Source: Actinomycetota bacterium | GTDB taxonomy: Bacteria > Actinomycetota > CADDZG01 > WHSQ01 | NCBI GenBank assembly: GCA_034665685.1 | Contig: JAXDJL010000160.1 | Coordinates: forward strand, 1 to 31,027 | Direction: 5' to 3' | Length of the DNA: 31,027 nucleotides | Shown: positions 1 through 28,734 of the stretch, one piece after another | Position numbering within the stretch: the stretch's first letter is position 1 | Layout of the letters: every line of letters begins with the position of its first letter | Program-made: the position numbers and the translations under genes | Notes under the pieces: generated by a model | What the model saw: only the letters and a program-made list of their open reading frames with translations | Told to the model about the DNA's origin: nothing | Database searches by the model: none

Positions 1-513
1 GCCCATCTAGATTTCGTCGACGAACGGTTCGGAGTCACCGAAGGCCACGGAAACGTCATGAGGCGGATAGCTGAGATGCCCCACGTCTCCGGGCTTGCAC
101 AGATCGGGATCAGGGGGCCGGGCTCGAGCGACCCTGCCGACTTCGAGAAGGCCCGAAGTATGGGCAGCGTGATCATCGGGCCGCGCGAGTTCAGGCGGAT
201 CGGAGTTGACGCGGTGCTCAGCCGGGTTCCTCAGGCAGATGTTTATTACGTAACGATCGACTGTGACGGGTTCGATCCGGCTTTGATGCCCGGCAATGGT
301 TCCCCCTCCCCCGGTGGGTTCACGTATCACGAGGTTGTGGACTTCCTCAGAGCACTCGCTTTCGATCGAAAGAACGTGGTTGGAGTGGACTTCGTCGAGG
401 TGAACCCCACGTACGACCCAACGGGGGTAACCCAGCAAACCGCGGCGCGCGTTCTGCTGGACTTCCTGGGGGCCATCTACAAGGTGCGGGAGGGAACGCA
501 TGCGACGGGCTGA
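1..513 (+). CDS. Ureohydrolase (agmatinase/arginase family), 5'-truncated by the window edge
   Basis: Frame is open from base 1: AHLDFVDERFGVTEGHGNVMRR (tail of the DAHxD metal motif), QIGIRG, YVTIDCDGFDP (DxDxxDP), PGG, GVDFVEVNPTYD. The ORF-track ATG at 58 is internal. Confidence 0.92.
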   Translation, partial: AHLDFVDERFGVTEGHGNVMRRIAEMPHVSGLAQIGIRGPGSSDPADFEKARSMGSVIIGPREFRRIGVDAVLSRVPQADVYYVTIDCDGFDPALMPGNGSPSPGGFTYHEVVDFLRALAFDRKNVVGVDFVEVNPTYDPTGVTQQTAARVLLDFLGAIYKVREGTHATG

Positions 514-567
514 TCAAGTTCCCCTACGCCGTGGTTCTCTCACGTCCGAAGGAAGGGCGGAGGTCGC

Positions 568-819
568 GTGGATCAAGTGATCCAGGTGTCCGGAGCGATC
601 CTCATCCTGTCCGCCTTCATGTTGGCTCAGATGGGACGGATCTCGGTGGAGTCTCTTCCGTACCTCTACCTGAACGCAGCGGGGGCCGGGACCTTGGCAG
701 TCGATGCGTTTCGAAACGAACAGTGGGGGTTCGTCCTCCTGGAGGGTGTTTGGTTCCTAGTCACCCTCTGGAGCCTCACTCGGGCTTGGAGAGCGAAGAC
801 CCCTCACACATCCGACTGA
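568..819 (+). CDS. Small 3-TM membrane protein, CBU_0592-like family
   Basis: 83 aa hydrophobic protein with the pattern GAILILSAF...YLYLNAAGA..LAVDA...QWGFVLLEGVW; GTG start with purine-rich AGGGCGGAGG upstream. Family recognised from memory. Confidence 0.7.
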   Translation: MDQVIQVSGAILILSAFMLAQMGRISVESLPYLYLNAAGAGTLAVDAFRNEQWGFVLLEGVWFLVTLWSLTRAWRAKTPHTSD

Positions 820-1400
820 GGGTCCTCTGCGTCGGTGCCCAAGAGAGACTGCTGCCACTGCGCGATGTCGATTACACGCGTCTTGTAGTACGTCTGCATA
901 TAGCGAAGTGCGCGCTGATGCTCGGAGAAGTCGGGGGCATCGCAGGCATCCTCCAAAACACTCGTAGCAAACGTCCGTACGAATCCATCCCAAACGGTGT
1001 GCTGAACGCAGCAATCGGTCTGGATTCCGATAACGACTATTTCCCTGACGGAAAGTTCCCGTAGGAGTAGATCGAGTTGTGTGCCCGGGAATGCGCTGTA
1101 GCGCTTCTTTGGGATGATGAAATCCGACGTCGTGGGCTTCAGTTGATCGATTATCTCGGCGCCTGCCGTGCCCGCAATAGCGTGTTCCCCCCAAACCTTG
1201 TATTCCACCGTGGTGGGCATCTCACGTGCTTCAAAATGGTCGTTCGTGTAGATGATCGGGACGTCAGCTTCGCGAGCAACGGCGATCGCGCGCTCACATC
1301 CGCCGATGACGCGCTCTTTCTGCGGCGTCGCAGGAAGACTAGGCGGCCTGCCATGAACGAAATCGTTGATCATGTCAACAACAACCAGCGCTTGACTCAC
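804..1400 (-). CDS. Isochorismatase-family cysteine hydrolase (nicotinamidase-like amidase)
   Basis: Catalytic triad motifs VVVDMINDF (Asp), IPKKRYSAF (Lys), GIQTDCCV (Cys); WGEH. Start moved to GTG 1400 (GGAGG 5 nt upstream); the ORF-track extension to 1448 runs through a hairpin. Confidence 0.9.
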   Translation of the reverse strand: MSQALVVVDMINDFVHGRPPSLPATPQKERVIGGCERAIAVAREADVPIIYTNDHFEAREMPTTVEYKVWGEHAIAGTAGAEIIDQLKPTTSDFIIPKKRYSAFPGTQLDLLLRELSVREIVVIGIQTDCCVQHTVWDGFVRTFATSVLEDACDAPDFSEHQRALRYMQTYYKTRVIDIAQWQQSLLGTDAEDPQSDV

Positions 1401-1415
1401 GATCGCCTCCCATAA

Positions 1416-1443
1416 GGCTGGCGGAGATGACTCTCCGCCAGCC
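1416..1443 (-). terminator. Perfect 12-bp stem-loop between the binding-protein gene and the amidase (terminator or 3' stabilising hairpin)
   Basis: GGCTGGCGGAGA (1416-1427), 4-nt loop, TCTCCGCCAGCC (1432-1443); only a short TTAT follows on the minus strand. Confidence 0.65.
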
Positions 1444-1459
1444 CTCACGACGAGATCCT

Positions 1460-2578
1460 CTAAACGTCTGACGGGTCAAAATCCTCCGGTGCCATGTCGT
1501 TCGAAGTTTCGATCGAACCCACATCATCACTCGTGTAGACGGGCGCATCGAAGATGTACAGGATCTTTGGAGGCAGTGGCGTGAGCGCCTCATATGAAGG
1601 AAGGTCCACTTCCTCACCGTTCAACGACTTGATGGCGAGCTGTACGCCCAGGCGTCCCGTCAAAACAGGCCGCTCACTCTGAACGTAATCAACGAGGCCT
1701 TGCTCCAGAAAATTCAGCGTCTCCTCATTCAACGTTGATACGAGAACATCTGTATCTCCCTCGCGGCCCTCTGCCTCCAGCGCCGCCCCCGCACCTTCAC
1801 CCAAGGGGGCGGCTACGGCGATAATCGCGTCAATCTGATCCCCTGTGACCAACCAGTCCTCGACCACCTGCTGGGCGACGGCGCGATCCACATCCGTACT
1901 CTTTTCGAAGACGACCTCGAGACCGGGGTGGGACTCTGCGATGCGATCTTCGAAGCCCTTGACACGATCCATCGCCCAGTTCGCTCCGGCGGGTCCCGAG
2001 AGAACAGCGATCTTCGCATCCGGGTTTTTCTCGGCGACCCAGTCTGCCATGGCCTCGCCCACCGCCGGATCGTAGTTGTTCACGCCGTACGCGACCTTCT
2101 CACTGGCCGACATGTTCGCAAGGTTGATAACAACCGTGCCACTGTCGGCCGCTCTGTCGGCGATGGCTGCGGTGCCTTCATAGTCGTTTGGCGCGAAAAG
2201 GATCGCGTCAACGTCCAGTTGGATGAGGTCCTCGACTTGCTCTATCTGAGTATCGAGGTTCTCGTAGCCGCCCGCCTCGTACACGGCCTCGATCGTGCAT
2301 CCTGCTCGTCTCGCCTCATCCGCGGCGCCGTACGCTATCGCTACCCAGAAAGGGTCACGGAAGTGGGGAAGGGCCATCCCGAGCTTGCATTCCCCTTCGG
2401 GAGCCGACGGATCCAGATATCCACCTAGATCCGCCTTTGTAGACCCCGCCACCTCGCCGCCACTACTTGGCTCGTCTGCGGAGTCGTCGCCTCCGCCGCA
2501 CGCACCGGCGACAAGAAGCAGCACCATCGTCGTCAAAACCCATCGCAACAACACACTCTTCCGTTTACTTTGCACCAT
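1460..2578 (-). CDS. ABC transporter substrate-binding lipoprotein, RbsB/LacI fold, TorT-like
   Basis: Lipobox VAGAC after a hydrophobic stretch; PHFRDPFWVAIAYG, EAGGYENLDTQIEQVEDLI, VLSGPAG; AAGGAGG RBS. Confidence 0.9.
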   Translation of the reverse strand: MVQSKRKSVLLRWVLTTMVLLLVAGACGGGDDSADEPSSGGEVAGSTKADLGGYLDPSAPEGECKLGMALPHFRDPFWVAIAYGAADEARRAGCTIEAVYEAGGYENLDTQIEQVEDLIQLDVDAILFAPNDYEGTAAIADRAADSGTVVINLANMSASEKVAYGVNNYDPAVGEAMADWVAEKNPDAKIAVLSGPAGANWAMDRVKGFEDRIAESHPGLEVVFEKSTDVDRAVAQQVVEDWLVTGDQIDAIIAVAAPLGEGAGAALEAEGREGDTDVLVSTLNEETLNFLEQGLVDYVQSERPVLTGRLGVQLAIKSLNGEEVDLPSYEALTPLPPKILYIFDAPVYTSDDVGSIETSNDMAPEDFDPSDV

Positions 2579-2667
2579 TCCTCCTTAGATCGATTCCGGC
2601 CGCCATCATGGACAAACCAGCGGGGTCCTCCTTCCGCTCATGCGCATTCCTCGGTGATGTTCAGACC

Positions 2668-3705
2668 TCACGTTCGCACCCGCTTCCTCCAGCCGTCCAA
2701 CACCACGGCCGTGACGATCACGACACCGATCGCCATCAGCTGGATGTAGGAAGAAACACGTAGGAGATTCAGCCCGTTCGAGAGGATGCTGATGATGATG
2801 GCCCCCCACACGACATTTCCCAGCCGGCCCTCTCCACCACCGAGCGCGAAGCCGCCGATGATCACCGCTGCTAGAGCTTCGAGTTCGAGCCCGGTTCCTA
2901 GATTTGGCTGCCCTGAATCGACCCGCGACGTTAAGACGGCAGCACCGATCCCCGTTATGACGCCACAAAGGATGTAGGAGATTGCCTTCACTCGTCTAAC
3001 GGGAATACCTGCGAGGCGCGCGGCTTCGACATTTCCACCCGTTGCATAGAGATGTCGTCCATAGGTGGTCCGATTCAGCACGATCCAACCAATGACGAAT
3101 ACAGCTGTCGCGATGATGAACGGCATCGACAGAGGGCCGATTTCTCCCTCGCCTAGAAACCCAAAGTTATCGTTGAATCCATAGATCGGAACTCCGTCCG
3201 ATATGTAGAGAGCAAGACCCCGAGCGAAGCTGAGCATTCCTAAGGTCACTACGAACGGAGACACCCCAAAGGTCGAGATGGTGAGTCCGTTGACGACGCC
3301 GACACCTCCCGCCGCCACTACCGACATGCCTAGCCCGGCAGCCAACCCCCACGATTGCGTCGCGAGCGCCATCACCACGCTGGCGAGCCCCACTTGCGAA
3401 CCAATGGAGATGTCGAAGCCTCCGCCGAGGACTGGGAAGGCTTGCGCAAAAGCAAAGACCGCGAGAAGGGCAAACTGCCTTGCAACGTTGACCCCGTTAT
3501 CGAGGGTAGCGAAGCGCGGCTCTTGAATGGCGAAGAAGACGCACAAGAGAACTGCGGCTAGAGGGATTCCAGCTTGAAGTAGGGCCGCCGAGAGCCTGGT
3601 GAATTCCAGCCGTCGCGAGGACGGTTTCGAAGACTTCGAAAGCCCGTCATCCTCCCGTCCAGCTTCCGTTACCTGGTTCGTTTCGGACTCATTCCCCTGC
3701 GGCAT
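2668..3705 (-). CDS. ABC transporter permease, RbsC/BPD_transp_2 family
   Basis: GGFDISIGS, SPFVVTLGML, YGRHLYATGGNVEAARLAGI, LELEALAAVIIGG. Start moved to ATG 3705 (GAGGAG RBS, 1 nt after the ATPase stop). Confidence 0.93.
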   Translation of the reverse strand: MPQGNESETNQVTEAGREDDGLSKSSKPSSRRLEFTRLSAALLQAGIPLAAVLLCVFFAIQEPRFATLDNGVNVARQFALLAVFAFAQAFPVLGGGFDISIGSQVGLASVVMALATQSWGLAAGLGMSVVAAGGVGVVNGLTISTFGVSPFVVTLGMLSFARGLALYISDGVPIYGFNDNFGFLGEGEIGPLSMPFIIATAVFVIGWIVLNRTTYGRHLYATGGNVEAARLAGIPVRRVKAISYILCGVITGIGAAVLTSRVDSGQPNLGTGLELEALAAVIIGGFALGGGEGRLGNVVWGAIIISILSNGLNLLRVSSYIQLMAIGVVIVTAVVLDGWRKRVRT

Positions 3706-3706
3706 G

Positions 3707-5248
3707 CTAAGCACTCCTCGGCACAGGGTCGTCACCGAATGCCAGCTTCGCGATCTTCTCCTCCGACGCTTCCGCTCTGGTCAACCTCGCCACGACCTTT
3801 CCCGTCCGCATCACGTAGACGACGTCGCACAAACCGAGTACCTCCTCCAACTCACTTGAGAAGAGGAGGACGCCCGCCTCCTGGTCGACAAGGTCTCGAA
3901 CGAGCTGATAGATGTGCGATTTGGCGCCAACGTCGACCCCGCGAGTGGGTTCATCGAGCACGAAAAGGCGCGCTCGCGCGGCAATCGCTCTGCCGAGAAT
4001 CACCTTCTGTTGGTTTCCGCCGCTCAACTCCCGAATGGCGGTGCGCGAGTCGCGGGCGCGAATGTCCAGCTGCTCCTTGATGCTGCCGTAAAGCTCCTCT
4101 TCATCCCGGGGCCGAATGAAACCGTTCCGACCGATGATCCGAAGGGCAGACAAGGCCAGATTCGTCCTTACCGAGAGAGCAGGAATCACGCCATCCCGCT
4201 GACGGTCTCCAGGTATGTACGCAACACCCAGGCGGACCGTGTCAACAGGTGAATCGATTCGGACGGTCTCGCCAAACAACTCGATAGTGCCTACTGACGC
4301 AACTTCAGCACCGACGACCGCTCGTAACAACTCTGATTGACCCGAACCTTCGAGACCAGCAAGGCCGACGATCTCACCCTTCCGAACCACCAGGTCGACA
4401 TCATCGAACGCAGGCGGCCTCGACAGCCCGCGTAGTCGCAGGGCCTCTTGAGGAACCGACCCTGACTTAACCGCTGGGAACCACTCGCTCAGGTCGCGTC
4501 CGATCATCATCCGGATGAGGTCCGGGATCTCGACCTCATCCGTTCGCCTGGTAGCGACTAGACAACCATCCCTGAGCACTGTCACTTTGTCCGAGATCTG
4601 CTGCACTTCGGCAAGTTTGTGGGTCACGTAAACGACGCCCACACCCTTACCCTTCAATCTCTCGACAACGTCGAAGAGCCGTTCTATCTCTCGGTCATTC
4701 AACGACGAAGTCGGCTCGTCAAGGATCAGAAGCCGCATCGACGCAAGGAGCGCCCGCCCTATCTCCACAAGCTGGCGTTGATCAGCGGGCAAATCGCGGA
4801 CCTTGGTGCTGATGTCAATCTGCGGAGCGATCTCATCCAGGGCGGAACGAGCACGTTTGGCCATTCGGGCTCGATCCGTGAAGAATCGCATTCGGGGATG
4901 GTTCAGTTCCTGCCCCAGAAACAGGTTCTCCTCTACAGTTAGCTCCCCCACGAGGGAACCCTCCTGATAGATCGTCGCTACGCCGCTTCTACGCGCTTGC
5001 ACCGGCGAGTTGAAGCTCATTGCGACGCCGCCCATCAGCAGGTCCCCACCATCGGGCCGAACCGCGCCCGAGAGGATCTTGATAAGCGTCGATTTCCCGG
5101 CGCCGTTTTCACCGACTAACGCATGCACCTCACCCCCGTAGAGATCGAGCGAGACCGCGTCCAAGGCAAGGACCCCCGGATAGGCCTTTCTTATGTGACT
5201 AGCAGTTAGCAGCGGCCGCTCGTCCAACGCTTTCGTCGGGGTTGTCAT
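3707..5248 (-). CDS. Sugar-type ABC ATP-binding protein with two ATPase domains (RbsA-like)
   Basis: GENGAGKS Walker A, LILDEPT, YVTHKL; second domain LSGGNQQK, LDEPTRGVDVGAK. Confidence 0.96.
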   Translation of the reverse strand: MTTPTKALDERPLLTASHIRKAYPGVLALDAVSLDLYGGEVHALVGENGAGKSTLIKILSGAVRPDGGDLLMGGVAMSFNSPVQARRSGVATIYQEGSLVGELTVEENLFLGQELNHPRMRFFTDRARMAKRARSALDEIAPQIDISTKVRDLPADQRQLVEIGRALLASMRLLILDEPTSSLNDREIERLFDVVERLKGKGVGVVYVTHKLAEVQQISDKVTVLRDGCLVATRRTDEVEIPDLIRMMIGRDLSEWFPAVKSGSVPQEALRLRGLSRPPAFDDVDLVVRKGEIVGLAGLEGSGQSELLRAVVGAEVASVGTIELFGETVRIDSPVDTVRLGVAYIPGDRQRDGVIPALSVRTNLALSALRIIGRNGFIRPRDEEELYGSIKEQLDIRARDSRTAIRELSGGNQQKVILGRAIAARARLFVLDEPTRGVDVGAKSHIYQLVRDLVDQEAGVLLFSSELEEVLGLCDVVYVMRTGKVVARLTRAEASEEKIAKLAFGDDPVPRSA

Positions 5249-5296
5249 CAGGACGGCCTCACTCGCCGACTCTCCAGGAACAACACGCGGCGGCTG

Positions 5297-6301
5297 TCAC
5301 GGCGAGAAGAGGGGAACGATCTCTCTGGCAATGAGATCGAGTTGTTTTGGATCGTCGGAGGTCGGCCCCAGCATGAGGTGATCCAATCCGACATCGATGA
5401 GATCCTGGATACGAGCCAAAATATCGTCCATCGAGCCCAGGAGATATGACTCTTGCAGGTGCTCGAAGGTTCTATGCGTTCCCATGATCTCCTCGAAGAA
5501 AGGACGCTGGACCTCCAGCGCCTTCTCGCGATTCGATGTGTCTACGAGGTAGGTGAACTGACAATGTGAAAAGGTGAACTCCGACCGGTCTTTGCCTGCC
5601 TTTTGCAGCCCTTTCTGCACCTGCTGCCAATCGTTTTTCACGAAGTCCTGATTGCCGGCACACCGAGAGATCCAGCCATCGGATCTGACGATCCGATCAA
5701 GCACGGGTCGCGCCATGACGGGAACGTCGTGATAGTCGGGATCTGGGATCCGTGAGCCTCCTCCCGCCCATACCTGAGGTAACTTCGGTGGGCGAGGCTC
5801 GATCGTGACATCGTCGAATTTGAAGAAGCGTCCTTCGAAAGAAACCTTGTCCTCAGACAGCAATCTAAGGACCGCACTCAGTACCTCGTCCGTCCGCCGT
5901 CCTCGTTCAGAGATGTCGTTACCTACGGCCGTGTATTCGTCCGGGAACCACCCAGGCCCGATGCCGAAGACGAATCGCCCGCTCGTGAGGTAATCGAGGG
6001 TGGCGATCTCCTTCGCCAACACCACTGGATGCCGCAGTGGTAAGACGAGGATCCCCGTCCCAACCCGGGTACCGGGTACCAGGGCCGCGGCGTAGGTCAG
6101 CGTCGTCATGGGCTCCAGCCAGGACACGCCATACAACCCTTCTGCGTGAAGAAGGTGGTCGATAACCCAAAGATCGAGGCCGAGCTCATCGGCGCGAATG
6201 GAGAAGTCGCGTACGCTCTGTTTGACTCGATCGTACGAGAGATCCTTATACGTGTACGAGGGAATCCAACACCCAACAGGACGCTCTTCGGCTTTGGTCA
6301 T
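5297..6301 (-). CDS. LLM-class flavin/F420-dependent oxidoreductase (LLM-1)
   Basis: LWVIDH, LEPMTTLTYAAA, GTGILVLPLRHPVVLAKEIATLDYLTSGRFVFGIGPGW, PKLPQVWAGG. Start set at ATG 6301 because the ORF-track TTG at 6376 is the -35 box. Confidence 0.9.
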   Translation of the reverse strand: MTKAEERPVGCWIPSYTYKDLSYDRVKQSVRDFSIRADELGLDLWVIDHLLHAEGLYGVSWLEPMTTLTYAAALVPGTRVGTGILVLPLRHPVVLAKEIATLDYLTSGRFVFGIGPGWFPDEYTAVGNDISERGRRTDEVLSAVLRLLSEDKVSFEGRFFKFDDVTIEPRPPKLPQVWAGGGSRIPDPDYHDVPVMARPVLDRIVRSDGWISRCAGNQDFVKNDWQQVQKGLQKAGKDRSEFTFSHCQFTYLVDTSNREKALEVQRPFFEEIMGTHRTFEHLQESYLLGSMDDILARIQDLIDVGLDHLMLGPTSDDPKQLDLIAREIVPLFSP

Positions 6302-6347
6302 GACCCTCGCACGGAGACTTATGGGCTCGAGCGCCCGAATGTCCGAG

Positions 6348-6376
6348 AGTGTAGTCGCGAGGTCGTTTGATGTCAA
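6348..6376 (-). promoter_or_regulatory. Sigma70-type promoter of the LLM-1 / sugar-type ABC / amidase operon
   Basis: TTGACA (6376-6371), 17 nt, TACACT (6353-6348). Confidence 0.75.
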
Positions 6377-6380
6377 GATT
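6363..6380. promoter_or_regulatory. Candidate MarR (PecS/TamR-type) operator
   Basis: TCGTTTGATGTCAAGATT, 13/18 to TATCTTGACGTCAAGATA; overlaps the -35 box. Confidence 0.6.
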
Positions 6381-6427
6381 CTGAAGAAGAAGAGATTTAT
6401 CCCGGCGGGCGGATCCCGGGATCGACG

Positions 6428-7249
6428 CTACTCCTGCAGTACCCCTTCGTTTCTCAGGAGCTTCGTGATCTTGTCGACGCGGTCAAGGAATTCGGGTGTC
6501 TTTTGATCATCGAGCTTCCGCGGTCTCGCGAGATCGACGGGCAGGTCAACGAGAACACGACCCGGCCTCGGGGAGAAAACCACAATCCGGTCGGCTAGGA
6601 ACACGGCCTCAGTGATGCTGTGCGTGACAAAGATCACCGTCTTCTGATCGTTGAGCCACAAGGCCTGTAGGTCGATTCCCATCTGATCGCGTGTCAACGC
6701 GTCGAGGGCGGCGAACGGCTCGTCCATCAGCAACAGGGGCGGATCGTGCAGTAACGCCCGGCAGATGGCAACTCTTTGTTTCATACCCCCTGATAGGCCC
6801 GAAGGGTATGAGTCCTCGAAGCCCCCAAGCTTTGTCGACTCCATGAGCTCGAGAGCGCGAGCACGCGCCTTCTCCTTGTCCATCCTCCGCACTTCCGCCT
6901 GCATCATGATGTTCCGTAATGCAGTCCTCCACTCGAGCAGGGTCGGATCCTGAAAGACGATCCCCAGATCCGTATAGGGACGACGAACCTCATGGTCGCC
7001 AAGCCGAACGCGGCCGGTGGTGGGCTTTAGTAAACCGGCGACCGTCAGCAAGAGCGTGCTCTTCCCACACCCGCTCGGACCGAGGAAGACGACGAATTCG
7101 CCGGCTGCGATCTCTAGATCGACCTCTTTGAGCGCTTCGACGCGTCTGCCTTCGTTGGTTACGTAGGAATGGCCGACGCCTTGGATAGAGATCGGGACCC
7201 CCACAGGTGCTCGCACGTCCGGGGGGACACTCTGGATCTGGCGGCTCAT
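6428..7249 (-). CDS. ABC ATP-binding protein, NitT/TauT/SsuB family
   Basis: GPSGCGKST, LSGGMKQRVAICRAL, LLMDEPFAALDALTR, FVTHSITEAVFLADR. Confidence 0.96.
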   Translation of the reverse strand: MSRQIQSVPPDVRAPVGVPISIQGVGHSYVTNEGRRVEALKEVDLEIAAGEFVVFLGPSGCGKSTLLLTVAGLLKPTTGRVRLGDHEVRRPYTDLGIVFQDPTLLEWRTALRNIMMQAEVRRMDKEKARARALELMESTKLGGFEDSYPSGLSGGMKQRVAICRALLHDPPLLLMDEPFAALDALTRDQMGIDLQALWLNDQKTVIFVTHSITEAVFLADRIVVFSPRPGRVLVDLPVDLARPRKLDDQKTPEFLDRVDKITKLLRNEGVLQE

Positions 7250-9927: not shown

Positions 9928-10027
9928 TTCCTTCCTAGGAATTCATCGGCGTAAGACCCCACGGTCGTCGCCTCTGCCGGTAGCGCTGTTGTTCTCCTCC
10001 TTCTACTCGAGCCTCGAACGAATTTCG

Positions 10028-11083: not shown

Positions 11084-11178
11084 AGTTACCTCCCTTTCAG
11101 GCCCCCCGGACCGCGACCCCCGACGGGGCCGGTCCTCCCGGCAGGAGCGTTAGCTGCAGAAACTCTCTTTACTGAAAG

Positions 11179-13064: not shown

Positions 13065-13100
13065 TGGTCTCCTTGGGTCGGCGCCACACCATCTGGCGGA

Positions 13101-22021: not shown

Positions 22022-22777
22022 TTACTGCGCGGTCCAGCCGCCGTCGACCAGGAGATGATGACCCGTGACGTAAGAAGATTCCTCCGAGGCAAGGAACGTG
22101 ACGGCGCCCACAACGTCACTCGGCTCGCCGACCCTGCCCAGAGGGGTCCGGTCGAGGACGAACTTCTCGTTCTCCGCCTTGGCGAGCCACTCCTCGTTAA
22201 GACTCGTTCGGATGTATGCCGGTCCCACTGCATTGACACGGATCGTCGGGGCCCAGTTGACGGCCAGAACTCGGGTCATGTGGATCAACGCAGCCTTGGA
22301 TGCGGAATAAGAGACGGACGCCCCTGTCGTGACCTCACCCGCGACTGACGTGATGTTGACGACGTTCCCGCCGGCCCCATCGAGCATCTTTCTTGCGACC
22401 GCTTGCGTCAGGAAAAACGCTCCGCGAACGTTTATCTCGAACACCTCGTCCCACGACTCAGGTTCCATCTCCAAGGGGTTCCCGCGCACGATCGTTCCCG
22501 CGGCGTTCACCAGCACATTGATAGGTCGCCACTCCCATGCCAAGGCGACCGCAGCCTGGATGGAGGCCAGGTCACGGAGATCTGCGGGCACGCTCAAGAA
22601 GTCGGTACCGAGCCCCCGCAGCTCGTTGCCAAGCTCGTCGAGTGCCGACTCGGTCCGCGCGAGACCGACCACGGAGGCCCCTTCCCGGGCAAGACCACGA
22701 GCGATCTCTCGACCTATCCCACGGCTCGCGCCGGAGACCAGGACCGTGCGGCCTGCGAGTCTCCCGGACGGCGTCAC
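22022..22777 (-). CDS. SDR family NAD(P)-dependent oxidoreductase
   Basis: SGASRGIG, LVNAAG, NITS, YSASKAA, RVNAVGP, TGHHLLVDGG. Confidence 0.95.
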   Translation of the reverse strand: MTPSGRLAGRTVLVSGASRGIGREIARGLAREGASVVGLARTESALDELGNELRGLGTDFLSVPADLRDLASIQAAVALAWEWRPINVLVNAAGTIVRGNPLEMEPESWDEVFEINVRGAFFLTQAVARKMLDGAGGNVVNITSVAGEVTTGASVSYSASKAALIHMTRVLAVNWAPTIRVNAVGPAYIRTSLNEEWLAKAENEKFVLDRTPLGRVGEPSDVVGAVTFLASEESSYVTGHHLLVDGGWTAQ

Positions 22778-22790: not shown

Positions 22791-23816
22791 CTAGTTCGGC
22801 GCGAAGAGGTCCATCAAGCGCGTTGCTTGGTGCTTGGCGGCAGGTCGAAGGATCGGCAGCTGCACGCCGACATCTCTGAACTCCTGAACCCGCTTCTGAA
22901 CCTCCTCGGGCGTGCCACTGGCGGTCATGCCCTCGACGTACGAATCCGGCACCGCTTTGATGAGTTCCTCTTTTCCGCCGCGCGCCCAAGCTTCCTCGAA
23001 CTTGGGGATGTCTTCCTTCTTGATGTACGGCTCGCCGACGCGCATCTTGGGGCCTGCGATGAACGGGAGTTGGATAGGGTCGAGTTTGCTGGCGACCTCC
23101 CACTTGATGGCATCGACCGCCTTCTGATGGTCGTCCTCCACCGAGCAATTGATCAACTGGGCAACCTTGAAGTCGGCCCAGTCACGTCCGGAGTCGTCCA
23201 CCGCCTTGCGAACGATCTTCAACGCGTTGGCGGAGTACTCCGGAGAGCAGATCGCGTTCAACAGCACACCGTCTCCGATCGTGCCGGCGATCTTTAGCCC
23301 GGTCGTGCTTGTTGCCGGGATGTACATCGGGATGTACCTACGACGTGGTTCGAAGCCGAGCTTCACGTTGGAGAACTTCACGGTTTCCCCGTCGTAATCG
23401 ACCTCGCCGCCGGCCAGGATCGCCCTGATCGACTGAATCCAGTCGCGCAAGGTCGCGCCGGGGTTGATCGACTCGAGCCCGTGGCGCTTCGCATGCGTGT
23501 TGGTGCACGCCCCCGGTGCAACCATCAGCCGGCCGTCGGCGATCTCATCGAGCGACGCGAAGGTCTGAGCCATGACGAGCGGCGTACGAAGGCGAACTAT
23601 CTGAGTGCACCCGATCTGCATACGCTTAGTGGAGAGTGCGAACGCCGTAAGAGCGGACACAGAGTCCCTCATCAGCTCGATCGTCTCCGAGAAGAACCCG
23701 ATCTCGAACCCAGCCTCATCGGCGCGCTTGAACCACTCCGCCATCTCCTTGACATCGGCCGCCGGGTCGTACCCGGCAGCAAACCCGACCCGGTCGTTGT
23801 CCATTGACGCAATCAC
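22791..23816 (-). CDS. LLM-class oxidoreductase, Mer-like (LLM-2)
   Basis: ADEAGFEIGFFSE, RTPLVMAQTFASLDEIADGRL, IPMYIPAT, AGTIGDGVLLN, GTPEEV. Alternative start ATG 23804. Confidence 0.88.
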   Translation of the reverse strand: MIASMDNDRVGFAAGYDPAADVKEMAEWFKRADEAGFEIGFFSETIELMRDSVSALTAFALSTKRMQIGCTQIVRLRTPLVMAQTFASLDEIADGRLMVAPGACTNTHAKRHGLESINPGATLRDWIQSIRAILAGGEVDYDGETVKFSNVKLGFEPRRRYIPMYIPATSTTGLKIAGTIGDGVLLNAICSPEYSANALKIVRKAVDDSGRDWADFKVAQLINCSVEDDHQKAVDAIKWEVASKLDPIQLPFIAGPKMRVGEPYIKKEDIPKFEEAWARGGKEELIKAVPDSYVEGMTASGTPEEVQKRVQEFRDVGVQLPILRPAAKHQATRLMDLFAPN

Positions 23817-23860
23817 CCCTTCGCAGGCCCTTCCAGGCCCGCACTCGCCTGCCCAAATGT

Positions 23861-23888
23861 ATTTTAACGTTTAGTATCTTGATGTCTA
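23861..23888 (-). promoter_or_regulatory. Promoter of the LLM-2 / SDR / M24 / dehydrogenase / aldolase / xdhC / mocA operon
   Basis: TAGACA (23888-23883), 16 nt, TAAAAT (23866-23861), in an AT-rich patch. Confidence 0.55.
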
Positions 23889-23892
23889 GATA
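23875..23892. promoter_or_regulatory. Strongest candidate MarR operator (autoregulatory site)
   Basis: TATCTTGATGTCTAGATA, 14/18 self-palindromic, in the divergent region next to the MarR gene; a weaker overlapping site TATTTTAACGTTTAGTAT lies at 23860-23877. Confidence 0.78.
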
Positions 23893-23947
23893 CGTCACGG
23901 CGACACATCTGTCAAGATGCTCCCCTACAGTGCGAGCGGAGGACACG

Positions 23948-24466
23948 GTGGCCGAGGACTACGTCGACGAGATCTTGCGGCAGTGGAGCCGCGAACGCCC
24001 TGACCTGGATGTATCGCCGATGGGGGTGATCGGGCGACTCTCGCGGCTGACGCGCCATCTCGAAAGGGCGATCGAGGAGACATTCCAGAGCCACGGCCTC
24101 GGAGCGGGAGGCTTCGACGTTCTCGCGGCGCTTCGCCGCTCGGGCAAGCCCTATCGTCTCTCTCCCACCGAGCTTTACAACTCTCTCCTGATCTCCTCGG
24201 GCGCTATGACGAACCGGATCGACAGGCTCGAGGAACAGGGACATGTGGTGCGCGCCCCGGATGCCCACGATCGTCGAAGCATATCGGTCGCGTTGACGCC
24301 GAAGGGGAAGAAGACGATCGATGACGCGGTTCGCGAACACACGGAACGGGAGCACAATCTCTTGGCGAGCCTCAGTTCGCAGGAACAGAAGCAGCTTGCC
24401 GGTCTGCTGAGAGAGCTCCTACTGCAGTACGACGGCCAGGGCGTCCGGGAGAAAGCTCCCTCCTAA
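23948..24466 (+). CDS. MarR-family repressor of the PecS/TamR/HucR (UrtR) class
   Basis: DYVDEILRQWSRERPDLDVSPMGVIGR, FDVLAALRRSG, SGAMTNRIDRLE, DRRS. Start moved to GTG 23948 (GGAGG 5 nt upstream). Confidence 0.92.
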   Translation: MAEDYVDEILRQWSRERPDLDVSPMGVIGRLSRLTRHLERAIEETFQSHGLGAGGFDVLAALRRSGKPYRLSPTELYNSLLISSGAMTNRIDRLEEQGHVVRAPDAHDRRSISVALTPKGKKTIDDAVREHTEREHNLLASLSSQEQKQLAGLLRELLLQYDGQGVREKAPS

Positions 24467-24948
24467 CCCGGGTCCCGGGGTAGCCGTCCCGAAGCTTTCC
24501 TCACTGCCGCCACGATGTTCTGGTAACCGGTACACCGACAGACGTTTCCACTGAGACGCTCCCGGATCTCGTCATCCGTTGGATCGGGCTTTTCCCGGAG
24601 CAGCTCGGTGATCGTCATCAGAAACCCCGGAGTGCAGAACCCGCACTGGAGGCCGTGCTCCTCCGCGAAGGCCGCCTGAAGCGGGGCGAGCTCGCCGCCG
24701 ACAGGGGCGAGGCCTTCCACTGTTTCGAGCTGGTGGTCGTGCGCTTGCACAGCGAAGAGCAGACACGACCTGACGCTCCGCCCGTCCATGAGGATCGTGC
24801 ATGCACCACAAACACCGTGTTCGCACCCGAGATGAGTACCGGTGAGCCGTAACCTGTCCCGCAGGAAGTCGGCCAGGGTCATGCGCGGATCAACGGACTC
24901 TCGAACCTCTCGACCGTTGATCCGGAAAGAGATCTCGACGGAGCTCAT
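24463..24948 (-). CDS. coxS: Mo-hydroxylase small [2Fe-2S]2 subunit (CoxS/CutS-like)
   Basis: GCEHGVCGACT, LQCGFCTPG, GNVCRCTGY. Start moved to ATG 24948 (ATGA overlap with the coxM stop). Confidence 0.93.
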   Translation of the reverse strand: MSSVEISFRINGREVRESVDPRMTLADFLRDRLRLTGTHLGCEHGVCGACTILMDGRSVRSCLLFAVQAHDHQLETVEGLAPVGGELAPLQAAFAEEHGLQCGFCTPGFLMTITELLREKPDPTDDEIRERLSGNVCRCTGYQNIVAAVRKASGRLPRDPG

Positions 24949-25817
24949 CGGCCACCATCCTCTGCTCGGTCCACGGCTAGTCGCATCGCGCGCTTCATTA
25001 TGAGAGCCGCACAATGGCGCCTGAACTCACTCGACCCATGGATATCCCCCGTCGGATCGATCTCGTCTTGGAGAGCTACACCGATCGCGTCCAAGACGTC
25101 ATCTCCCCCGTCCGAGCCGATCATCATCGCGGCCGCCTCGGAGCGCACCGGAGTCCCACCTACTCCAACAAGCGCCACTCGGGCATCGCTGATCACGCCT
25201 CCCGAACGATGCACCACTGCGGCCGATCCGACTATTCCGAAGTCTCCGTGACGTCGCGAGAACTCCTCGAACGCCGACCCTGCCCCTCGCTCGGGGAGAG
25301 GAAACCGAATCTCGGTAAGCACCTCCTCGGGCTCGAGAGCAGTTGTGAAATACGACTGGAAGAAGTCAGTAGCCGCGATCGTCCGCCGCCCGCCTGGCCC
25401 CGAAGCTTCGAACTCGGCATCCAAAGCCAATGCCAGAGCCGGCCACTCAGCCGCGGGATCGGAATGGGCACAGCTGCCGCCCACCGTTCCTCGATTGCGT
25501 ATCGCCACATGGCCGAGCACCGACATCGCTTCTCGGATCATCGGAGAGCGGTCCTGCAGGGCCGCATCGAGCTCGATATCGCGGTGGGTGGTCATCGCGC
25601 CGATCCGAACGACGTCGTCGCCGTGTCGCACGTACCTCAGCTCGGCGACGCGGCCCAGGTCGACCACGACCGACGGGCGGGCGAGTCGCAATGCCATGAG
25701 CGGCACGAGGCTCTGGCCGCCTGCCAACAGCTTGGCTTCGTCACCGTGTTGCTTGAGGAGCGAGACAGCCTCATCGACCGTATCCGGAGCGGCGTAATCG
25801 AACGGTGGGGGCTTCAC
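24945..25817 (-). CDS. coxM: Mo-hydroxylase FAD-binding subunit (CoxM/CutM-like)
   Basis: LLAGGQSLVP, IRNRGTVGGSCAHSDPAAE, RRHGDFG, DIHGSSEFRRH. Confidence 0.93.
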   Translation of the reverse strand: MKPPPFDYAAPDTVDEAVSLLKQHGDEAKLLAGGQSLVPLMALRLARPSVVVDLGRVAELRYVRHGDDVVRIGAMTTHRDIELDAALQDRSPMIREAMSVLGHVAIRNRGTVGGSCAHSDPAAEWPALALALDAEFEASGPGGRRTIAATDFFQSYFTTALEPEEVLTEIRFPLPERGAGSAFEEFSRRHGDFGIVGSAAVVHRSGGVISDARVALVGVGGTPVRSEAAAMMIGSDGGDDVLDAIGVALQDEIDPTGDIHGSSEFRRHCAALIMKRAMRLAVDRAEDGGR

Positions 25818-26425
25818 GTTGTTCGGCGACCGAAGATGCGCTTCAAGAACCTAGTGAAAGCCCGGAACAGGGCACCGAGCAGAAGGCGTCCACCCTTGAG
25901 CGGAGGGGCGGCCGTGGGGGGAGATTGCATTTGGGGTTGCGAGGCCGGGTCTCCGGCCGACACGCCCGGCTGCGCAGGAACGATCTCGAGCTTGCTCGCT
26001 ACGCAGCGGGCGAAATCGTCGATCATGCGCGAGGAAACATCTTCGATCATCCCCCTGCCGTACTGCGCGACCGCCCCCGCGAGTTTCAGGTCCGTGCTGA
26101 TCGATACCCTGGTGCCCTGCTCGTAAGCCTCCAGCACGGACACGACCGTTGCTTGCGCGCTCCCCTTCCCGCGGGTCTCCTTGCCCTTAGCTCGAAGTGA
26201 CACGCGACGCGACGCGACGTCGCGTTCCTCGAGTTCGACTTCGCCGGCGAACGATAGGCGGATGGGCCCCAACTTGACCGACATCTTGCCCTTCCAGTGG
26301 GAGTCATCGACCACCTCTGTTAACTCCGCTCCGGCGACGCAGGGGACGATGCGCTCCACATCGAGGAGCAGCTCCCACGTCTCCTCAGGGGGCGCAGGCA
26401 CTATGAATTCGTTCTTTATCTCCAC
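25814..26425 (-). CDS. coxG: CoxG/SRPBCC family protein
   Basis: PEETWELLLDVERIVPCVAGAEL, GKMSVKLGPI, AQYGRGMIEDV; Pro/Ala-rich linker and basic amphipathic C-terminus. Confidence 0.9.
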   Translation of the reverse strand: MEIKNEFIVPAPPEETWELLLDVERIVPCVAGAELTEVVDDSHWKGKMSVKLGPIRLSFAGEVELEERDVASRRVSLRAKGKETRGKGSAQATVVSVLEAYEQGTRVSISTDLKLAGAVAQYGRGMIEDVSSRMIDDFARCVASKLEIVPAQPGVSAGDPASQPQMQSPPTAAPPLKGGRLLLGALFRAFTRFLKRIFGRRTT

Positions 26426-26443: not shown

Positions 26444-27949
26444 TCAGTTCGTCGGGAAGCCGAGGTTGACCGAGCTTCCTTGGGTATCCGGCCACCGTGC
26501 AGTCACGGCTTTGGTCCGGGTGTAGAAGTTGATGCCCTCTTTCCCGTGTACATGTGAGTCTCCGAACAACGATTGCTTCCAACCGCCGAAGGAGAAGAAG
26601 GCCATGGGAACGGGGATGGGAATATTGATTCCCACCATCCCTACTTCAACCTCGTTCTGGAAGTGACGGGCGGCGGCGCCGTCCGAAGTGAAGATCGCCG
26701 TTCCGTTCCCATACTCGTTCTTGTTGATCAGCTGTATGGCCTCAGCGAGTGACTCGACGCGTAGCACGCTGAGGACCGGGCCGAAGATCTCATTGCGATG
26801 TATCTCCATCTCTGGGCGAACGTCGTCGAACAACGTTGGGCCCAGCCAGAAACCTTCGGAGCCGGGAGCTGCTGGAACCTCGGGCGACCGGCCGTCCACC
26901 ACCAGGCGGGCGCCTTCGCCCCGACCGGTCTCGACGAACGCTGCGACGCGATCGCGATGCTCACCGGTAACCAACGGCCCCATGTCCGCCGCTTCGTCCG
27001 AGGCCGGCCCAAGCTTGATCTCGCCGATCCGCTGCACCAACCGGTCGATCAGGGGGTCCGCGGCGTCACCGACGGCCACGATCGCGGAGATCGCCATGCA
27101 ACGTTGCCCGCTCGACCCGTATCCCGCGGAAACAGCAGCATCTGCGGCGAAGTCCAGGTCGGCGTCGGGCATCACGACCATGTGGTTCTTCGCGCCGCCA
27201 AGAGCCTGAACGCGCTTCCCGTGCTCGGCAGCCGTCTGATAGATGTGGCGGGCCACGGGGGTAGACCCGACCGAAGATACAGCCGCCACGTCCGGGTGCT
27301 CTAGCAAGCGATCGACCGCTACCCGGTCCCCCTGGATCACATTGAAGACTCCTTCGGGAAGCCCCGCTTCGTGGAACCATTCGGCGAGAAGCAGGGCTGC
27401 GGAAGGGTCCTTCTCGGACGGCTTTAGGACGAACGTGTTCCCGCATGCGATGGCTATGGGGAACATCCACATCGGAACCATCACCGGGAAGTTGAACGGC
27501 GTGATGCCCGCGACTACCCCGACAGGCTGCCGGATCGAATAGGCATCGATCGACCTAGACACGTTCTCGGAGAAGTCGCCCTTCAGGAGATGCGGGATAC
27601 CACAAGCGAATTCGACAACCTCCTGGCCGCGCGCAACCTCGCCCATCGCGTCGGACAGCACTTTGCCGTGTTCGGAGGAGATGACTCGGGCAAGATCCTT
27701 GCCCCGCTCATCCAGGATCCCGCGATACGCGAACAAGATGCGAGTCCGACGGGTCAGCGGGGAATCCCTCCACGAATCGAACGCTCGGGCAGCGGAGTGC
27801 ACCGCGGCGTCGACTTCGTCGGGCGATGCGAACGCCACCTCGGCCTGAACGGCACCGGTAGCGGGATCGAAGACGGGACCGGACCTGTCGGCGCGCCCGG
27901 CCTGGCGTTTCCCATCGATCCAATGAGGGATCAGCACTCTCTCCGTCAC
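26444..27949 (-). CDS. mmsA: CoA-acylating (methyl)malonate-semialdehyde dehydrogenase
   Basis: GITPFNFPVMVPMWMFP, LKPSEKDP, QALGGAKNH, GSSGQRCMA, EIFGPVL, GGWKQSLFGD; AGGAGG RBS before GTG. Confidence 0.94.
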   Translation of the reverse strand: MTERVLIPHWIDGKRQAGRADRSGPVFDPATGAVQAEVAFASPDEVDAAVHSAARAFDSWRDSPLTRRTRILFAYRGILDERGKDLARVISSEHGKVLSDAMGEVARGQEVVEFACGIPHLLKGDFSENVSRSIDAYSIRQPVGVVAGITPFNFPVMVPMWMFPIAIACGNTFVLKPSEKDPSAALLLAEWFHEAGLPEGVFNVIQGDRVAVDRLLEHPDVAAVSSVGSTPVARHIYQTAAEHGKRVQALGGAKNHMVVMPDADLDFAADAAVSAGYGSSGQRCMAISAIVAVGDAADPLIDRLVQRIGEIKLGPASDEAADMGPLVTGEHRDRVAAFVETGRGEGARLVVDGRSPEVPAAPGSEGFWLGPTLFDDVRPEMEIHRNEIFGPVLSVLRVESLAEAIQLINKNEYGNGTAIFTSDGAAARHFQNEVEVGMVGINIPIPVPMAFFSFGGWKQSLFGDSHVHGKEGINFYTRTKAVTARWPDTQGSSVNLGFPTN

Positions 27950-27986
27950 GGCGCCTCCTACTCGCGCCTAGTCGCGGCGCATGATT

Positions 27987-28004
27987 TGTCTTAAGCTCAA
28001 ACCA
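27987..28004. promoter_or_regulatory. Weak candidate operator upstream of mmsA-coxG-coxM-coxS
   Basis: TGTCTTAAGCTCAAACCA, only 11/18; overlaps the minus-strand TATGGT -10-like box (28006-28001). Confidence 0.35.
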
Positions 28005-28060
28005 TATATGAACACGATTCCGAGACTCCTGGGCCCCCTTGGTCAATTTTCGTTACAGCG

Positions 28061-28253
28061 GTGGTGAGCCGGGTCGGTTGCTGGATCCCCTCCTACACGT
28101 ACCGAGAACTCTCGTACGAACGGGTCGATAACTCGGTTCGCAACTTCAGCATCAAGTCGAACGATCTAGGGCTGGACCTGTGAGTGATCGACCACCTGCT
28201 CCATGCCGATGGCCTCTACGGGGTGTCGTGGCTCGAGCCGGATGGCGACCCTC
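28061..28253 (+). pseudogene. 5' remnant of a second copy of the LLM-1 gene
   Basis: VGCWIPSYTYRELSYERVDNSVRNFSIKSNDLGLDL*VIDHLLHADGLYGVSWLEP: 44/56 aa identical to 5297-6301; TGG>TGA at 28181; extra G at about 28241; homology ends after MATL. Confidence 0.93.
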
Positions 28254-28311
28254 TGTTCCTCGGTCGATTGGGACGAGTGCACATGAATAAATGTCTAGGA
28301 GGGAGCCACGA

Positions 28312-28734
28312 ATGAAAAGCGTTGCCAAGGAGATCATTGCTAAGGACATCGCTCCGCCGGCCTATCAGTACACGCATGGGCTGCGGGTCTCCGGAGCCGA
28401 CCTCTTGATTCTGTCAGGTCAGCTAGCGGTGGGGACCGATGGCGAATTGGTGGGCGCCGGAGACTTCGCCGCTCAAGCACATCAGGTTTTCCACAACATC
28501 GAAGTGGTGCTGAATGCCGGCGATGCATCTTTGGCCGATGTAGTGCGGTTCACCGTTTACCTAGTCCGGCCCGAGGACGGCCCGATATTCTGGGAGGTGA
28601 GGGAGCAGGTTTTCGCCAAGACATTCGGGTTGGATCAGCCCTTCCCCACGTCGACGATGATCTACGTGAGCGGCCTCGTGACTCCCGAGTTTCTCATCGA
28701 GATCGAAGCGACGGCGGCGGTAGCCCGTAATTGA
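28312..28734 (+). CDS. Rid (YjgF/YER057c/UK114) family protein lacking the catalytic Arg
   Basis: YTHG, LSGQ, QAHQVFHNIEVVL, FPTSTMIYVSGL, LIEIEA. Start moved to ATG 28312 (AGGAGG RBS). Confidence 0.9.
   Translation: MKSVAKEIIAKDIAPPAYQYTHGLRVSGADLLILSGQLAVGTDGELVGAGDFAAQAHQVFHNIEVVLNAGDASLADVVRFTVYLVRPEDGPIFWEVREQVFAKTFGLDQPFPTSTMIYVSGLVTPEFLIEIEATAAVARN

Follow-up and report, generated by a model that had tools for sequence, protein, structure and literature searches.

A conserved five-gene catabolic module

The stretch of DNA analyzed here, hereafter the window, is the entire 31-kb contig JAXDJL010000160.1 (31,027 nucleotides) of a metagenome-assembled genome (MAG; GCA_034665685.1; 2.07 Mb, 82% complete) of an Actinomycetota bacterium. 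The window harbors a core module of five genes encoding a Mer-like luciferase-like oxidoreductase (LLM2), a short-chain dehydrogenase/reductase (SDR), a 552-aa M24 metallohydrolase, a glutamate dehydrogenase (GDH)-like amino-acid dehydrogenase of the ELFV family, and a pyruvate aldolase. This module is kept across phyla and commonly adjoins a molybdenum (Mo) hydroxylase of the Qor/Kdh type. We hold with good confidence that the locus joins a conserved lower module to variable feeders, and consider the chances about even that it is a catabolic island under MarR control that breaks down an N-heterocyclic carboxylic acid through a conserved lower pathway supplied by variable upper feeders.

The proteins of the window were mapped onto loci bearing an M24 homologue, and the gene calls in these loci were assigned to Pfam families. 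About 16 loci, from Actinomycetes, Acidimicrobiia, Propionibacteriales, Streptosporangiales, Chloroflexi, and Bacteroidota, encoded an M24 protein at least 44% identical to that of the window (44-82%) and are referred to as the near clade. ELFV and aldolase genes were each present in 15 of them, LLM2 and SDR genes in 12 each, and a gene for the Mo-hydroxylase large subunit (CoxL) in 11, where a CoxLMS-type Mo hydroxylase adjoined the module. The aldolase was of the dihydrodipicolinate synthase (DHDPS) type in seven loci and of the HpcH/HpaI type in eight, at the same gene position. One locus (L026) came close to the gene set of the window, with NMT1-type ABC importer, Rid, EamA, LLM, SDR, M24, ELFV, DHDPS-type, and DUF1989 genes. 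A Rid (YjgF) family imine/enamine deaminase is encoded in the window (28291-28734, + strand; PF01042), and Rid genes were found in at least six other loci (L004, L016, L026, and three contigs of a more distant M24 clade). Several sister clusters contained genes for a VdcC/VdcB-like UbiD/UbiX decarboxylase together with a second CoxL, or for an Amidohydro_2 protein, which suggests that hydroxylated heteroaromatic acids may be decarboxylated there.

A preliminary description of the window, made from the sequence alone, had proposed an undescribed degradation pathway whose genes should co-occur in other genomes. The core genes do travel together, recurring in about 16 loci of three phyla, so that the proposal of a real, conserved, and undescribed catabolic cluster stands. 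Its outline (hydroxylation, reduction, ring opening, nitrogen release, C-C cleavage, and conversion of (methyl)malonate semialdehyde to an acyl-CoA) matches the co-travelling genes, and the NMT1-type importer, Rid, EamA, DUF1989, and pentein genes were each found again inside such clusters. The idea of a single pathway was borne out for the conserved core and this outline but not for the set of five C-N hydrolases on which it was built, of which only M24 belongs to the core. Folds were assigned from the list of open reading frames and from Pfam and NCBIfam profile searches, which agreed with every fold named earlier. None of the hydrolases in the window reached an NCBIfam equivalog cut-off, and MmsA was the sole enzyme above a specific NCBIfam family threshold.

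The M24 hydrolase

The M24 gene (20360-22018, - strand; PF00557) encodes a three-domain M24B metallohydrolase, for which we propose a role as the ring-opening hydrolase of a lactam or other cyclic C-N bond. The family is rare: about 70 homologues were found among 5.8 billion proteins, nearly all of them metagenomic, with 18 loci in 185,579 species (one genome each), all 18 in MAGs, and a further 19 loci in JGI metagenomes. No match was found in 60 relatives of the MAG, and the protein matched no NCBIfam model and no PDB sequence at E<0.01. Its AlphaFold model (pLDDT 91.8) has a pita-bread, three-domain fold resembling prolidase and aminopeptidase P (APP), and the top Foldseek matches were prolidases (probability 1.00, TM-score by target 0.75-0.78, 19-21% identity). 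Five putative metal ligands (D398, D415, H491, E520, and E533), assigned by motif (IDAG, SDITRS, and GHxxG) without superposition, were invariant in 37 homologues, and the His and the two Glu ligands are spaced as in prolidases (29 and 13 residues). The M24B family can thus be recognized by fold in the model and by its five metal-ligand positions in the sequence.

Prolidases and APPs share with the window protein the pita-bread fold, the five metal ligands, and, in eukaryotic APP1, the three-domain layout. They differ from it in sequence (13-21% identity), and the window protein has six residues inserted between its two Asp ligands. Its gene was always found within a redox/aldolase operon and not in a context of peptide utilization. 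This gene context argues for a non-peptide substrate. Creatinase was rejected as a candidate function, because it would require lost metal ligands where all five are kept, and creatinase folds ranked only 27th-30th, at 13-15% identity.

The SDR gene (22022-22777, - strand; PF13561 and PF00106), proposed to perform a keto/hydroxy step on the reduced ring, has counterparts adjoining M24 genes in near and distant clades alike, and an SDR-M24 fusion protein of 895 aa (P0067) is known. M24 proteins of the distant clade are only 28-33% identical to that of the window, and their substrate may therefore differ. Their SDR-M24 pairs were accompanied by HutG-like arginase-family genes in L018, L042, and two further contigs, and other neighbours encoded a succinate-dehydrogenase-like flavoprotein, a pyridoxal phosphate (PLP) enzyme (PALP), Rid, and a cupin. 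In a Bacillota MAG (L032, 1172-10781), a distant M24 gene (30%) stood with genes for a TRAP transporter, a tungsten-type aldehyde:ferredoxin oxidoreductase, and a PxpABC-type 5-oxoprolinase; this cluster resembles an anaerobic variant in which M24 is again paired with lactam-opening enzymes.

Molybdenum hydroxylase and proposed ring reductase

The window encodes a Mo hydroxylase whose large subunit, CoxL (13213-15522, + strand; PF02738, PF20256, and PF01315), is divergent from the DUF1989 gene. The genes for the 2Fe-2S subunit CoxS (24463-25014, - strand; PF01799 with PF00111), the FAD subunit CoxM (24945-25817, - strand; PF00941 with PF03450), and CoxG (25814-26425, - strand; PF06240) lie downstream of mmsA, in an order that is the same in L003. 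L003 also shares the order of the genes for Mo-cofactor maturation, namely xdhC (17115-18221, - strand; PF13478 with PF02625) and a gene for a MobA-like nucleotidyltransferase (16497-17108, - strand; PF12804). The domains of the three subunits, together with XdhC and MobA, all scored above Pfam cut-offs, identifying a Mo hydroxylase of the xanthine oxidase family. The best PDB matches of CoxL were quinoline 2-oxidoreductase (1t3q, E = 6.9e-151) and 6-hydroxypseudooxynicotine dehydrogenase (7dqx), nicotinate dehydrogenase (3hrd) being a distant match; the glyceraldehyde dehydrogenase model scored 606 bits. Aerobic CO dehydrogenase was rejected, since CoxL fell below the cut-offs of its models (NF040766, 757.6 versus 950; TIGR02416, 465 versus 991).

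LLM2 (22791-23816, - strand; PF00296, 171 bits), encoded by the first gene of the core operon, is the proposed ring reductase. Its best NCBIfam and PDB matches were F420-dependent Mer proteins, and LLM2 proteins 68-74% identical were found in 12 other loci. By these matches LLM2 is probably F420-dependent; the MAG encodes a fused FbiC, and F420 biosynthesis genes scored above cut-off in two of the five cluster-bearing genomes searched.

Amino-acid dehydrogenase, aldolases, and MmsA

The ELFV gene (19189-20337, - strand; PF00208 and PF02812) encodes a GDH-like enzyme proposed to deaminate an acidic amino acid oxidatively. Its best PDB matches were GDHs, although it scored 192 against a cut-off of 620 with the GDH equivalog model; the protein was 64-72% identical in 15 loci and falls in a clade of 1483 proteins at E<=1e-100. 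In GDHs, the side-chain carboxylate of the substrate is bound by Lys89 and Ser380 (Clostridium symbiosum numbering). The window protein keeps the equivalents of Lys89, Lys113, and Lys125, and so also the catalytic Lys and the Lys for the α-carboxylate, and has Ala in place of Ser380, a pattern invariant in 16 orthologues. In Actinomadura verrucosospora (CP053892, 583933-605075; L062), an orthologue (67%) is encoded in an operon (genes 7312-11143) with an aldehyde dehydrogenase (ALDH) whose best model is L-piperidine-6-carboxylate dehydrogenase (P6C dehydrogenase) and a sarcosine/pipecolate-oxidase-like FAD enzyme, which hints at 2-aminoadipate-type substrates for the ELFV enzyme. The operon of this cultured strain may itself represent a route from pipecolate via 2-aminoadipate to 2-oxoadipate.

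The aldolase of the window (18272-19192, - strand; PF00701, 196 bits) is a class I pyruvate aldolase of the DHDPS family that scored below the cut-off of the dapA model. It keeps the Schiff-base Lys (GVKDTG) and the equivalent of DapA Arg138 (YDNPERVG), a residue that binds the carboxylate of the aldehyde substrate in DapA. A class II aldolase of the HpcH/HpaI family took the same position in L004, L006, L007, L009, L010, L011, and L017; this partner was nearest to GarL and HpaI, which are aldolases of C6/C7 diacids. Such a swap between non-orthologous aldolases is strong evidence that the function kept at this position is aldol cleavage of a 4-hydroxy-2-oxo acid. Together, the features of the dehydrogenase and the aldolases point to an acidic substrate. 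The product aldehyde could be passed to MmsA (26444-27949, - strand), a CoA-acylating (methyl)malonate-semialdehyde dehydrogenase encoded by the first gene of the mmsA-coxGMS unit, which scored 718.4 bits with TIGR01722 (cut-off 448.5).

Pentein and DUF1989 proteins

The pentein (10028-11083, - strand; PF02274, 38 bits) is a Cys hydrolase that had been compared with arginine deiminase (ADI) and dimethylarginine dimethylaminohydrolase (DDAH). Its best PDB match is instead the 2-nitroimidazole nitrohydrolase NnhA (9azg, E = 3.5e-44), against E values of about 4e-4 to 1e-3 or weaker for DDAH and ADI. The NnhA report (PMC11659421) names residues Cys357, His260, Asp262, Glu197, and Asn311, among them the catalytic Cys, His, and Glu. 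The window protein keeps the equivalents of all five and has Val in place of a second pocket Cys (C352); with these residues and its closer match to NnhA than to ADI or DDAH, it belongs to the NnhA-like branch. The pentein therefore probably attacks an amidine-like ring carbon and not arginine. NnhA and the window protein both lie in a small, uncharacterized branch of guanidino-modifying enzymes that occurs in Actinomycetota.

The DUF1989 protein (12414-13064, - strand; PF09347) is likewise an accessory tied to the Mo hydroxylase. An orthologue of the pentein (63%) was encoded directly upstream of coxM-coxS-coxL in L015, and the gene for a DUF1989 orthologue (62%) overlapped the coxL stop codon in L026. 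Whole-genome searches of 17 other M24-bearing genomes found an orthologue-level copy of the pentein in one, and no orthologue-level copy of DUF1989 in 16. Since both are missing from most of these genomes, they appear to be optional accessories of the hydroxylase step and not part of the core; they are sporadic and travel with the hydroxylase genes. A role of DUF1989 in a CgdAB-type or urea-amidolyase-associated system was rejected, as TIGR03424 scored 155.6 against 284.7, the urea-amidolyase-associated protein models scored below cut-off, the DUF1989 protein stands alone, and no carboxylase family was matched in the window. The protein weakly matched the DUF1989 domain of trimethylamine N-oxide (TMAO) demethylase. 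Nine NnhA-like pentein and nine DUF1989 matches were also found in an alphaproteobacterial MAG (G071; L054-L061), with several penteins in tandem pairs. The two families are thus unusually expanded in that genome, but eight regions around these matches showed no link to M24 or Mo-hydroxylase genes and offered no clue to function.

Regulation and transport

A MarR-family regulator (23804-24466, + strand; NCBIfam MarR-type matches), whose true start probably lies near 23950, is encoded divergently from LLM2, and a 172-aa MarR is encoded at the same place in L003. A palindrome, TATCT-N8-AGATA, occurs as an exact copy in the LLM2/marR intergenic region (23875-23892) and again between the DUF1989 and coxL genes (13101-13118); both are putative MarR operators. 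Operator-like sites with one mismatch lie at 13150-13167 and upstream of the EamA gene (16479-16496). These four matches with at most one mismatch compare with 0.18 expected and are all in promoter-side intergenic DNA, and an exact copy was also found in the marR/LLM intergenic region of L003. The core operon, coxL, the EamA gene, and the unit of DUF1989 and MFS genes are thus linked by a common palindrome, as putative members of a single MarR regulon. A search allowing two mismatches was noisy (8 versus 3.4 expected) and added no promoter site.

The NMT1/THI5-type ABC importer (6428-9927, - strand; PF09084, PF00528, and PF00005) consists of a binding protein (8902-9927), two permeases, and an ATPase (6428-7249). 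The best PDB matches of the binding protein were 4nmy and ThiY (3ix1), and NMT1-type ABC genes stood beside M24 genes in L008, L012, L015, L018, L024, L025, and L042. An MFS transporter (11216-12382, - strand; PF07690) is encoded downstream of DUF1989, and an EamA-family carrier (15510-16487, - strand; PF00892) recurs in L003 and L026. The transporters of the clusters vary by locus among NMT1-type ABC, LivK-type ABC, MFS, and TRAP systems, all of which suit a carboxylated heterocycle.

Proposed pathway and alternative explanations

In the proposed route, the Mo hydroxylase would place an oxo group on a ring carbon adjoining the nitrogen, and the NnhA-like pentein could yield the same oxo product hydrolytically, by replacing the exocyclic nitrogen substituent of an amino- or nitro-substituted analogue. 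The Mer-like LLM, using F420H2 or reduced flavin, and the SDR would convert the pyridone-type ring to a hydroxy-lactam, which the prolidase-like M24 enzyme would open at the nitrogen bearing the α-carboxylate to give an acidic 4-hydroxy-2-amino acid, possibly the C6 compound 4-hydroxy-2-aminoadipate. The GDH-like dehydrogenase, helped by Rid, would release ammonia, the aldolase would split the resulting 4-hydroxy-2-oxo acid into pyruvate and a carboxy-aldehyde, and MmsA would turn the latter into an acyl-CoA. We tentatively name pyridine-2-carboxylates as the substrates. They give the best fit to the carbon count, as six carbons would lead to 4-hydroxy-2-oxoadipate and then to pyruvate and malonate semialdehyde, and a single-nitrogen ring is favored because most clusters need only one nitrogen release. 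The most specific guess is picolinate, or pyridine dicarboxylates where the genome has UbiD/UbiX, with 4-hydroxy-6-oxopipecolate, 4-hydroxy-2-aminoadipate, and 4-hydroxy-2-oxoadipate as intermediates; dipicolinate-type dicarboxylates from spores, plants, and fungi would enter via UbiD/UbiX or other decarboxylases. It is possible, though still doubtful, that the module is in full a lower pathway for pyridine-2-carboxylates of an undescribed reductive-hydrolytic kind, probably dependent on F420, with M24 as a lactam hydrolase and the ELFV protein as an aminoadipate-type dehydrogenase. The reversal of dipicolinate biosynthesis via DapA alone was rejected as an explanation, as it leaves M24, ELFV, and the HpcH swap unexplained.

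Several observations weigh against this route. ELFV orthologues 65-69% identical also occur in other gene contexts, so that the high identity of this enzyme is not pathway-specific. MmsA adjoins the cluster only in the window and L003, and searches for the palindrome found no copy at the promoter of either mmsA or the pentein gene. The use of F420 is uncertain, given that CofH-like matches were below cut-off in a Bacteroidota genome and no match reached cut-off in two other MAGs. The window encodes a single CoxL, and the oxygen at ring position 4 would thus need a second hydroxylation by this enzyme or a hydration step. Finally, a ring with two nitrogens would also be in keeping with the likeness of the pentein to NnhA, with that of the binding protein to ThiY, and with the arginase genes found in three to four distant-clade M24 loci.

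Such a ring is at the heart of the preliminary description, which saw one pathway for a heterocycle with an amidine, guanidine, or ureido group, with five hydrolases each breaking one C-N bond in stepwise action; carboxylates of pyrimidine, imidazole, or a cyclic guanidine would be examples of such a substrate. We regard this as unlikely, although the pentein is nearest to an enzyme attacking imidazole C2, the importer's binding protein is nearest to pyrimidine-binding ThiY, and an operator lies at the DUF1989 promoter. One further M24 cluster has an orthologue of the pentein and another has one of DUF1989 (62-63% identity), HutG-like arginase genes accompany the distant-clade SDR-M24 pairs listed above, and the genes from 13064 down to 804 all run in the same direction and are tightly packed. 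The five hydrolases do not hold together, however: orthologue-level copies of the pentein and of DUF1989 were each found in only one of the 17 other M24-bearing genomes, most near-clade genomes having neither anywhere, and no near-clade locus has a gene corresponding to the window's arginase or isochorismatase gene. The arginase gene is moreover convergent and is replaced by a MOSC gene in L052, the left 11 kb has a lower GC content, and the distant-clade M24 proteins, at 28-33% identity, may use another substrate. Most core clusters are without a second nitrogen-releasing hydrolase beside the core, and a ring with one nitrogen accounts for this more economically than one with an amidine, guanidine, or ureido group.

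Slightly less probable still is a substrate whose ring is not aromatic, either a cyclic imino acid or a lactam; examples are pipecolate, hydroxypipecolate, and related rings derived from lysine. The Mo enzyme would then oxidize a cyclic imine or aldehyde, and M24 would open a 6-oxopipecolate-type lactam. Enzymes of the xanthine oxidase family convert cyclic iminium ions to lactams and oxidize aldehydes, with which the 606-bit score of CoxL against the glyceraldehyde dehydrogenase model agrees; prolidases, whose fold M24 resembles, bind cyclic imino acids; and the Actinomadura operon encodes, along with the ELFV orthologue, an ALDH resembling P6C dehydrogenase and a flavoenzyme resembling pipecolate/sarcosine oxidase. 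The nearest relatives of CoxL are nonetheless Qor and Kdh, which hydroxylate heteroaromatic rings, aromatic substrates are implied by the genes for UbiD/UbiX decarboxylases of hydroxyarylic acids in sister clusters, and a saturated ring would leave little work for a reductive LLM and an SDR. We give very little credence to a chance mosaic of unrelated operons in which M24 is an ordinary Xaa-Pro peptidase. Rearrangement is indicated by the several transport systems, the GC step, and a remnant of an LLM gene (28046-28240), and JGI annotation labels the M24 homologues Xaa-Pro aminopeptidases. The five-gene core keeps the same neighbours across phyla, however, with the aldolase swap and the SDR-M24 fusion, the promoters have an operator in common, and M24 is at most 21% identical to any solved peptidase and matched no NCBIfam model.

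Comparison with known systems

Full-text literature searches, directed at the gene set, the proposed intermediates, and actinobacterial picolinate genes, found no described pathway that has this composition or runs through these intermediates, as had been supposed. No Pfam family match in the window was obtained for uricase, allantoinase/dihydropyrimidinase, barbiturase, or urea carboxylase, and the Rut models fell well short of their thresholds (RutA, 30.5 versus a cut-off of 498; RutB, 78 versus 378; RutC, 38.5 versus 169), in agreement with the preliminary description. The logic of the proposed route resembles that of the upper, hydroxylate-reduce-hydrolyze section of nicotinate fermentation and also the ring opening by the ectoine hydrolase DoeA, while the enzyme families and the end through an amino acid and an aldolase differ.

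In its upper part, nicotinate fermentation in Eubacterium barkeri proceeds through nicotinate dehydrogenase, 6-hydroxynicotinate reductase, and enamidase. It shares with the route proposed here the Mo-dependent hydroxylation beside the ring nitrogen, the reduction of a pyridone, and the hydrolytic opening of a cyclic amide. Its reductase is an Fe-S flavoprotein and its hydrolase an enamidase of the amidohydrolase superfamily, in place of the Mer-like LLM with SDR and the M24 enzyme of the window. In addition, the carboxylate at C3 yields no α-amino acid, and the pathway involves neither an ELFV dehydrogenase nor a pyruvate aldolase.

The aerobic pathway for picolinate (pic) in Alcaligenes faecalis JQ135 and in Bordetella is reported to begin with a three-component Mo hydroxylase and to include an isochorismatase-family amidase, PicF (bioRxiv 10.1101/530550; PMC10142695). 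This pathway and the window would thus have in common a Mo hydroxylase for the first step and possibly the substrate class. The pic route continues with a second oxygenation, decarboxylation to 2,5-dihydroxypyridine, dioxygenolytic cleavage, and maleamate, whereas the route proposed for the window is reductive-hydrolytic. No Pfam match in the window was found for the dioxygenase, deformylase, or maleate isomerase families, and the pic pathway was rejected because the families of PicB (monooxygenase), PicC (decarboxylase), PicD (2,5-dihydroxypyridine dioxygenase), PicE (deformylase), and PicG (isomerase) were unmatched by Pfam, a judgment made by families and not with the Pic sequences.

DoeA/EutD is an M24 enzyme that opens a non-peptide N-heterocycle carboxylate, as is proposed for the M24 of the window. 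The latter matched DoeA (6twk) in fold at E = 4e-13, lower in rank than the prolidases, with about 16% identity and a TM-score by query of 0.44-0.47, and differs from it by 150 extra residues and a third domain. EutB accompanies ectoine clusters, and PALP (PLP-dehydratase) genes similarly accompany the distant-clade M24 genes. The window contains no Doe-type deacetylase, transaminase, or semialdehyde dehydrogenase, and ectoine breakdown requires neither a Mo hydroxylase nor a ring reduction. An ectoine or creatinine pathway was therefore rejected, the partner genes not being present and the metal ligands being kept.

Acids of pyridine and related N-heterocycles are frequent in soil, among them metabolites of tryptophan, dipicolinate from spores, toxins of fungi, and residues of agrochemicals, and the known bacterial routes for such acids are mostly oxygenolytic and from Proteobacteria. 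If our reading is correct, a reductive-hydrolytic route in uncultured soil Actinomycetota and their allies would add a new way of mineralizing ring nitrogen. It would also supply the first function for an M24 family that is rare and deep-branching, that of a new lactam hydrolase, and for a GDH-like clade of more than 1000 members, the window protein being then the first ELFV enzyme known as an aminoadipate-type dehydrogenase. For amino- or nitro-substituted rings, the pentein would take the place of the Mo hydroxylase by hydrolysis, and the cluster would provide a physiological setting for NnhA-like penteins and an orphan DUF1989 protein. The five-gene module is compact and suited to heterologous reconstitution, and the MarR operator and the binding protein offer handles on the substrate. 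With the substrate class tentative and the argument from five hydrolases failing, we consider the cluster of solid but not exceptional interest.

Left block and composition of the contig

The left part of the window contains an arginase-family fragment truncated by the contig end (1-513, + strand; PF00491), an isochorismatase-family amidase (804-1400/1448, - strand; Pfam and NCBIfam), and, from profile searches, a sugar/TorT-type ABC system (1460-5248, - strand) and a second luciferase-like oxidoreductase, LLM1 (5297-6376, - strand). The arginase-family gene, convergent with the isochorismatase gene, scored below the cut-offs of the agmatinase and HutG models. LLM1, the sugar-type ABC system, and the isochorismatase form a unit kept in L052 at 73-86% identity, a block that was never found beside a near-clade M24. 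L052, a 76%-identical relative, carries its MOSC gene where the window has the arginase gene, which probably lies outside the unit. The arginase and isochorismatase genes sit beyond the second ABC system, in DNA of lower GC content. The sugar-type binding protein (1460-2578, - strand) had TMAO-binding TorT as its best NCBIfam match (140 bits, below cut-off); its likeness to TorT and the TMAO demethylase match of DUF1989 may be a coincidence or a hint of an N-oxide or quaternary-amine ligand.

The second sugar-type ABC system, the MFS transporter, the EamA carrier, and steps in GC content add to what the preliminary description had stressed. The GC content was 58-61% at 1-11 kb, 62-67% at 11-28 kb, and about 59-61% beyond 28 kb, so that the Mo-hydroxylase/M24 module appears as a compositional island of the contig. 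None of M24, the isochorismatase, and an orthologue-level LLM2 was found in 40-60 genomes related to the MAG, so that synteny with relatives could not tell the native flank apart from the island. At 500-13300, intrinsic terminators and sigma-70 promoters were no more numerous than in shuffled sequence and are therefore uninformative on operon limits. A TolB-like PD40 β-propeller protein (29367-30497, - strand) lies outside the cluster, with no evident tie to it. DNA of the window is also present in soil and permafrost metagenomes. The LLM remnant in the mmsA/rid intergenic region (28046-28240, + strand) is 69% identical to residues 25-89 of LLM1, and in L052 a Rid fragment adjoins LLM1; the segment from 6.4 to 28 kb thus seems to have come, by insertion or rearrangement, between Rid and LLM1 genes that were ancestrally paired.

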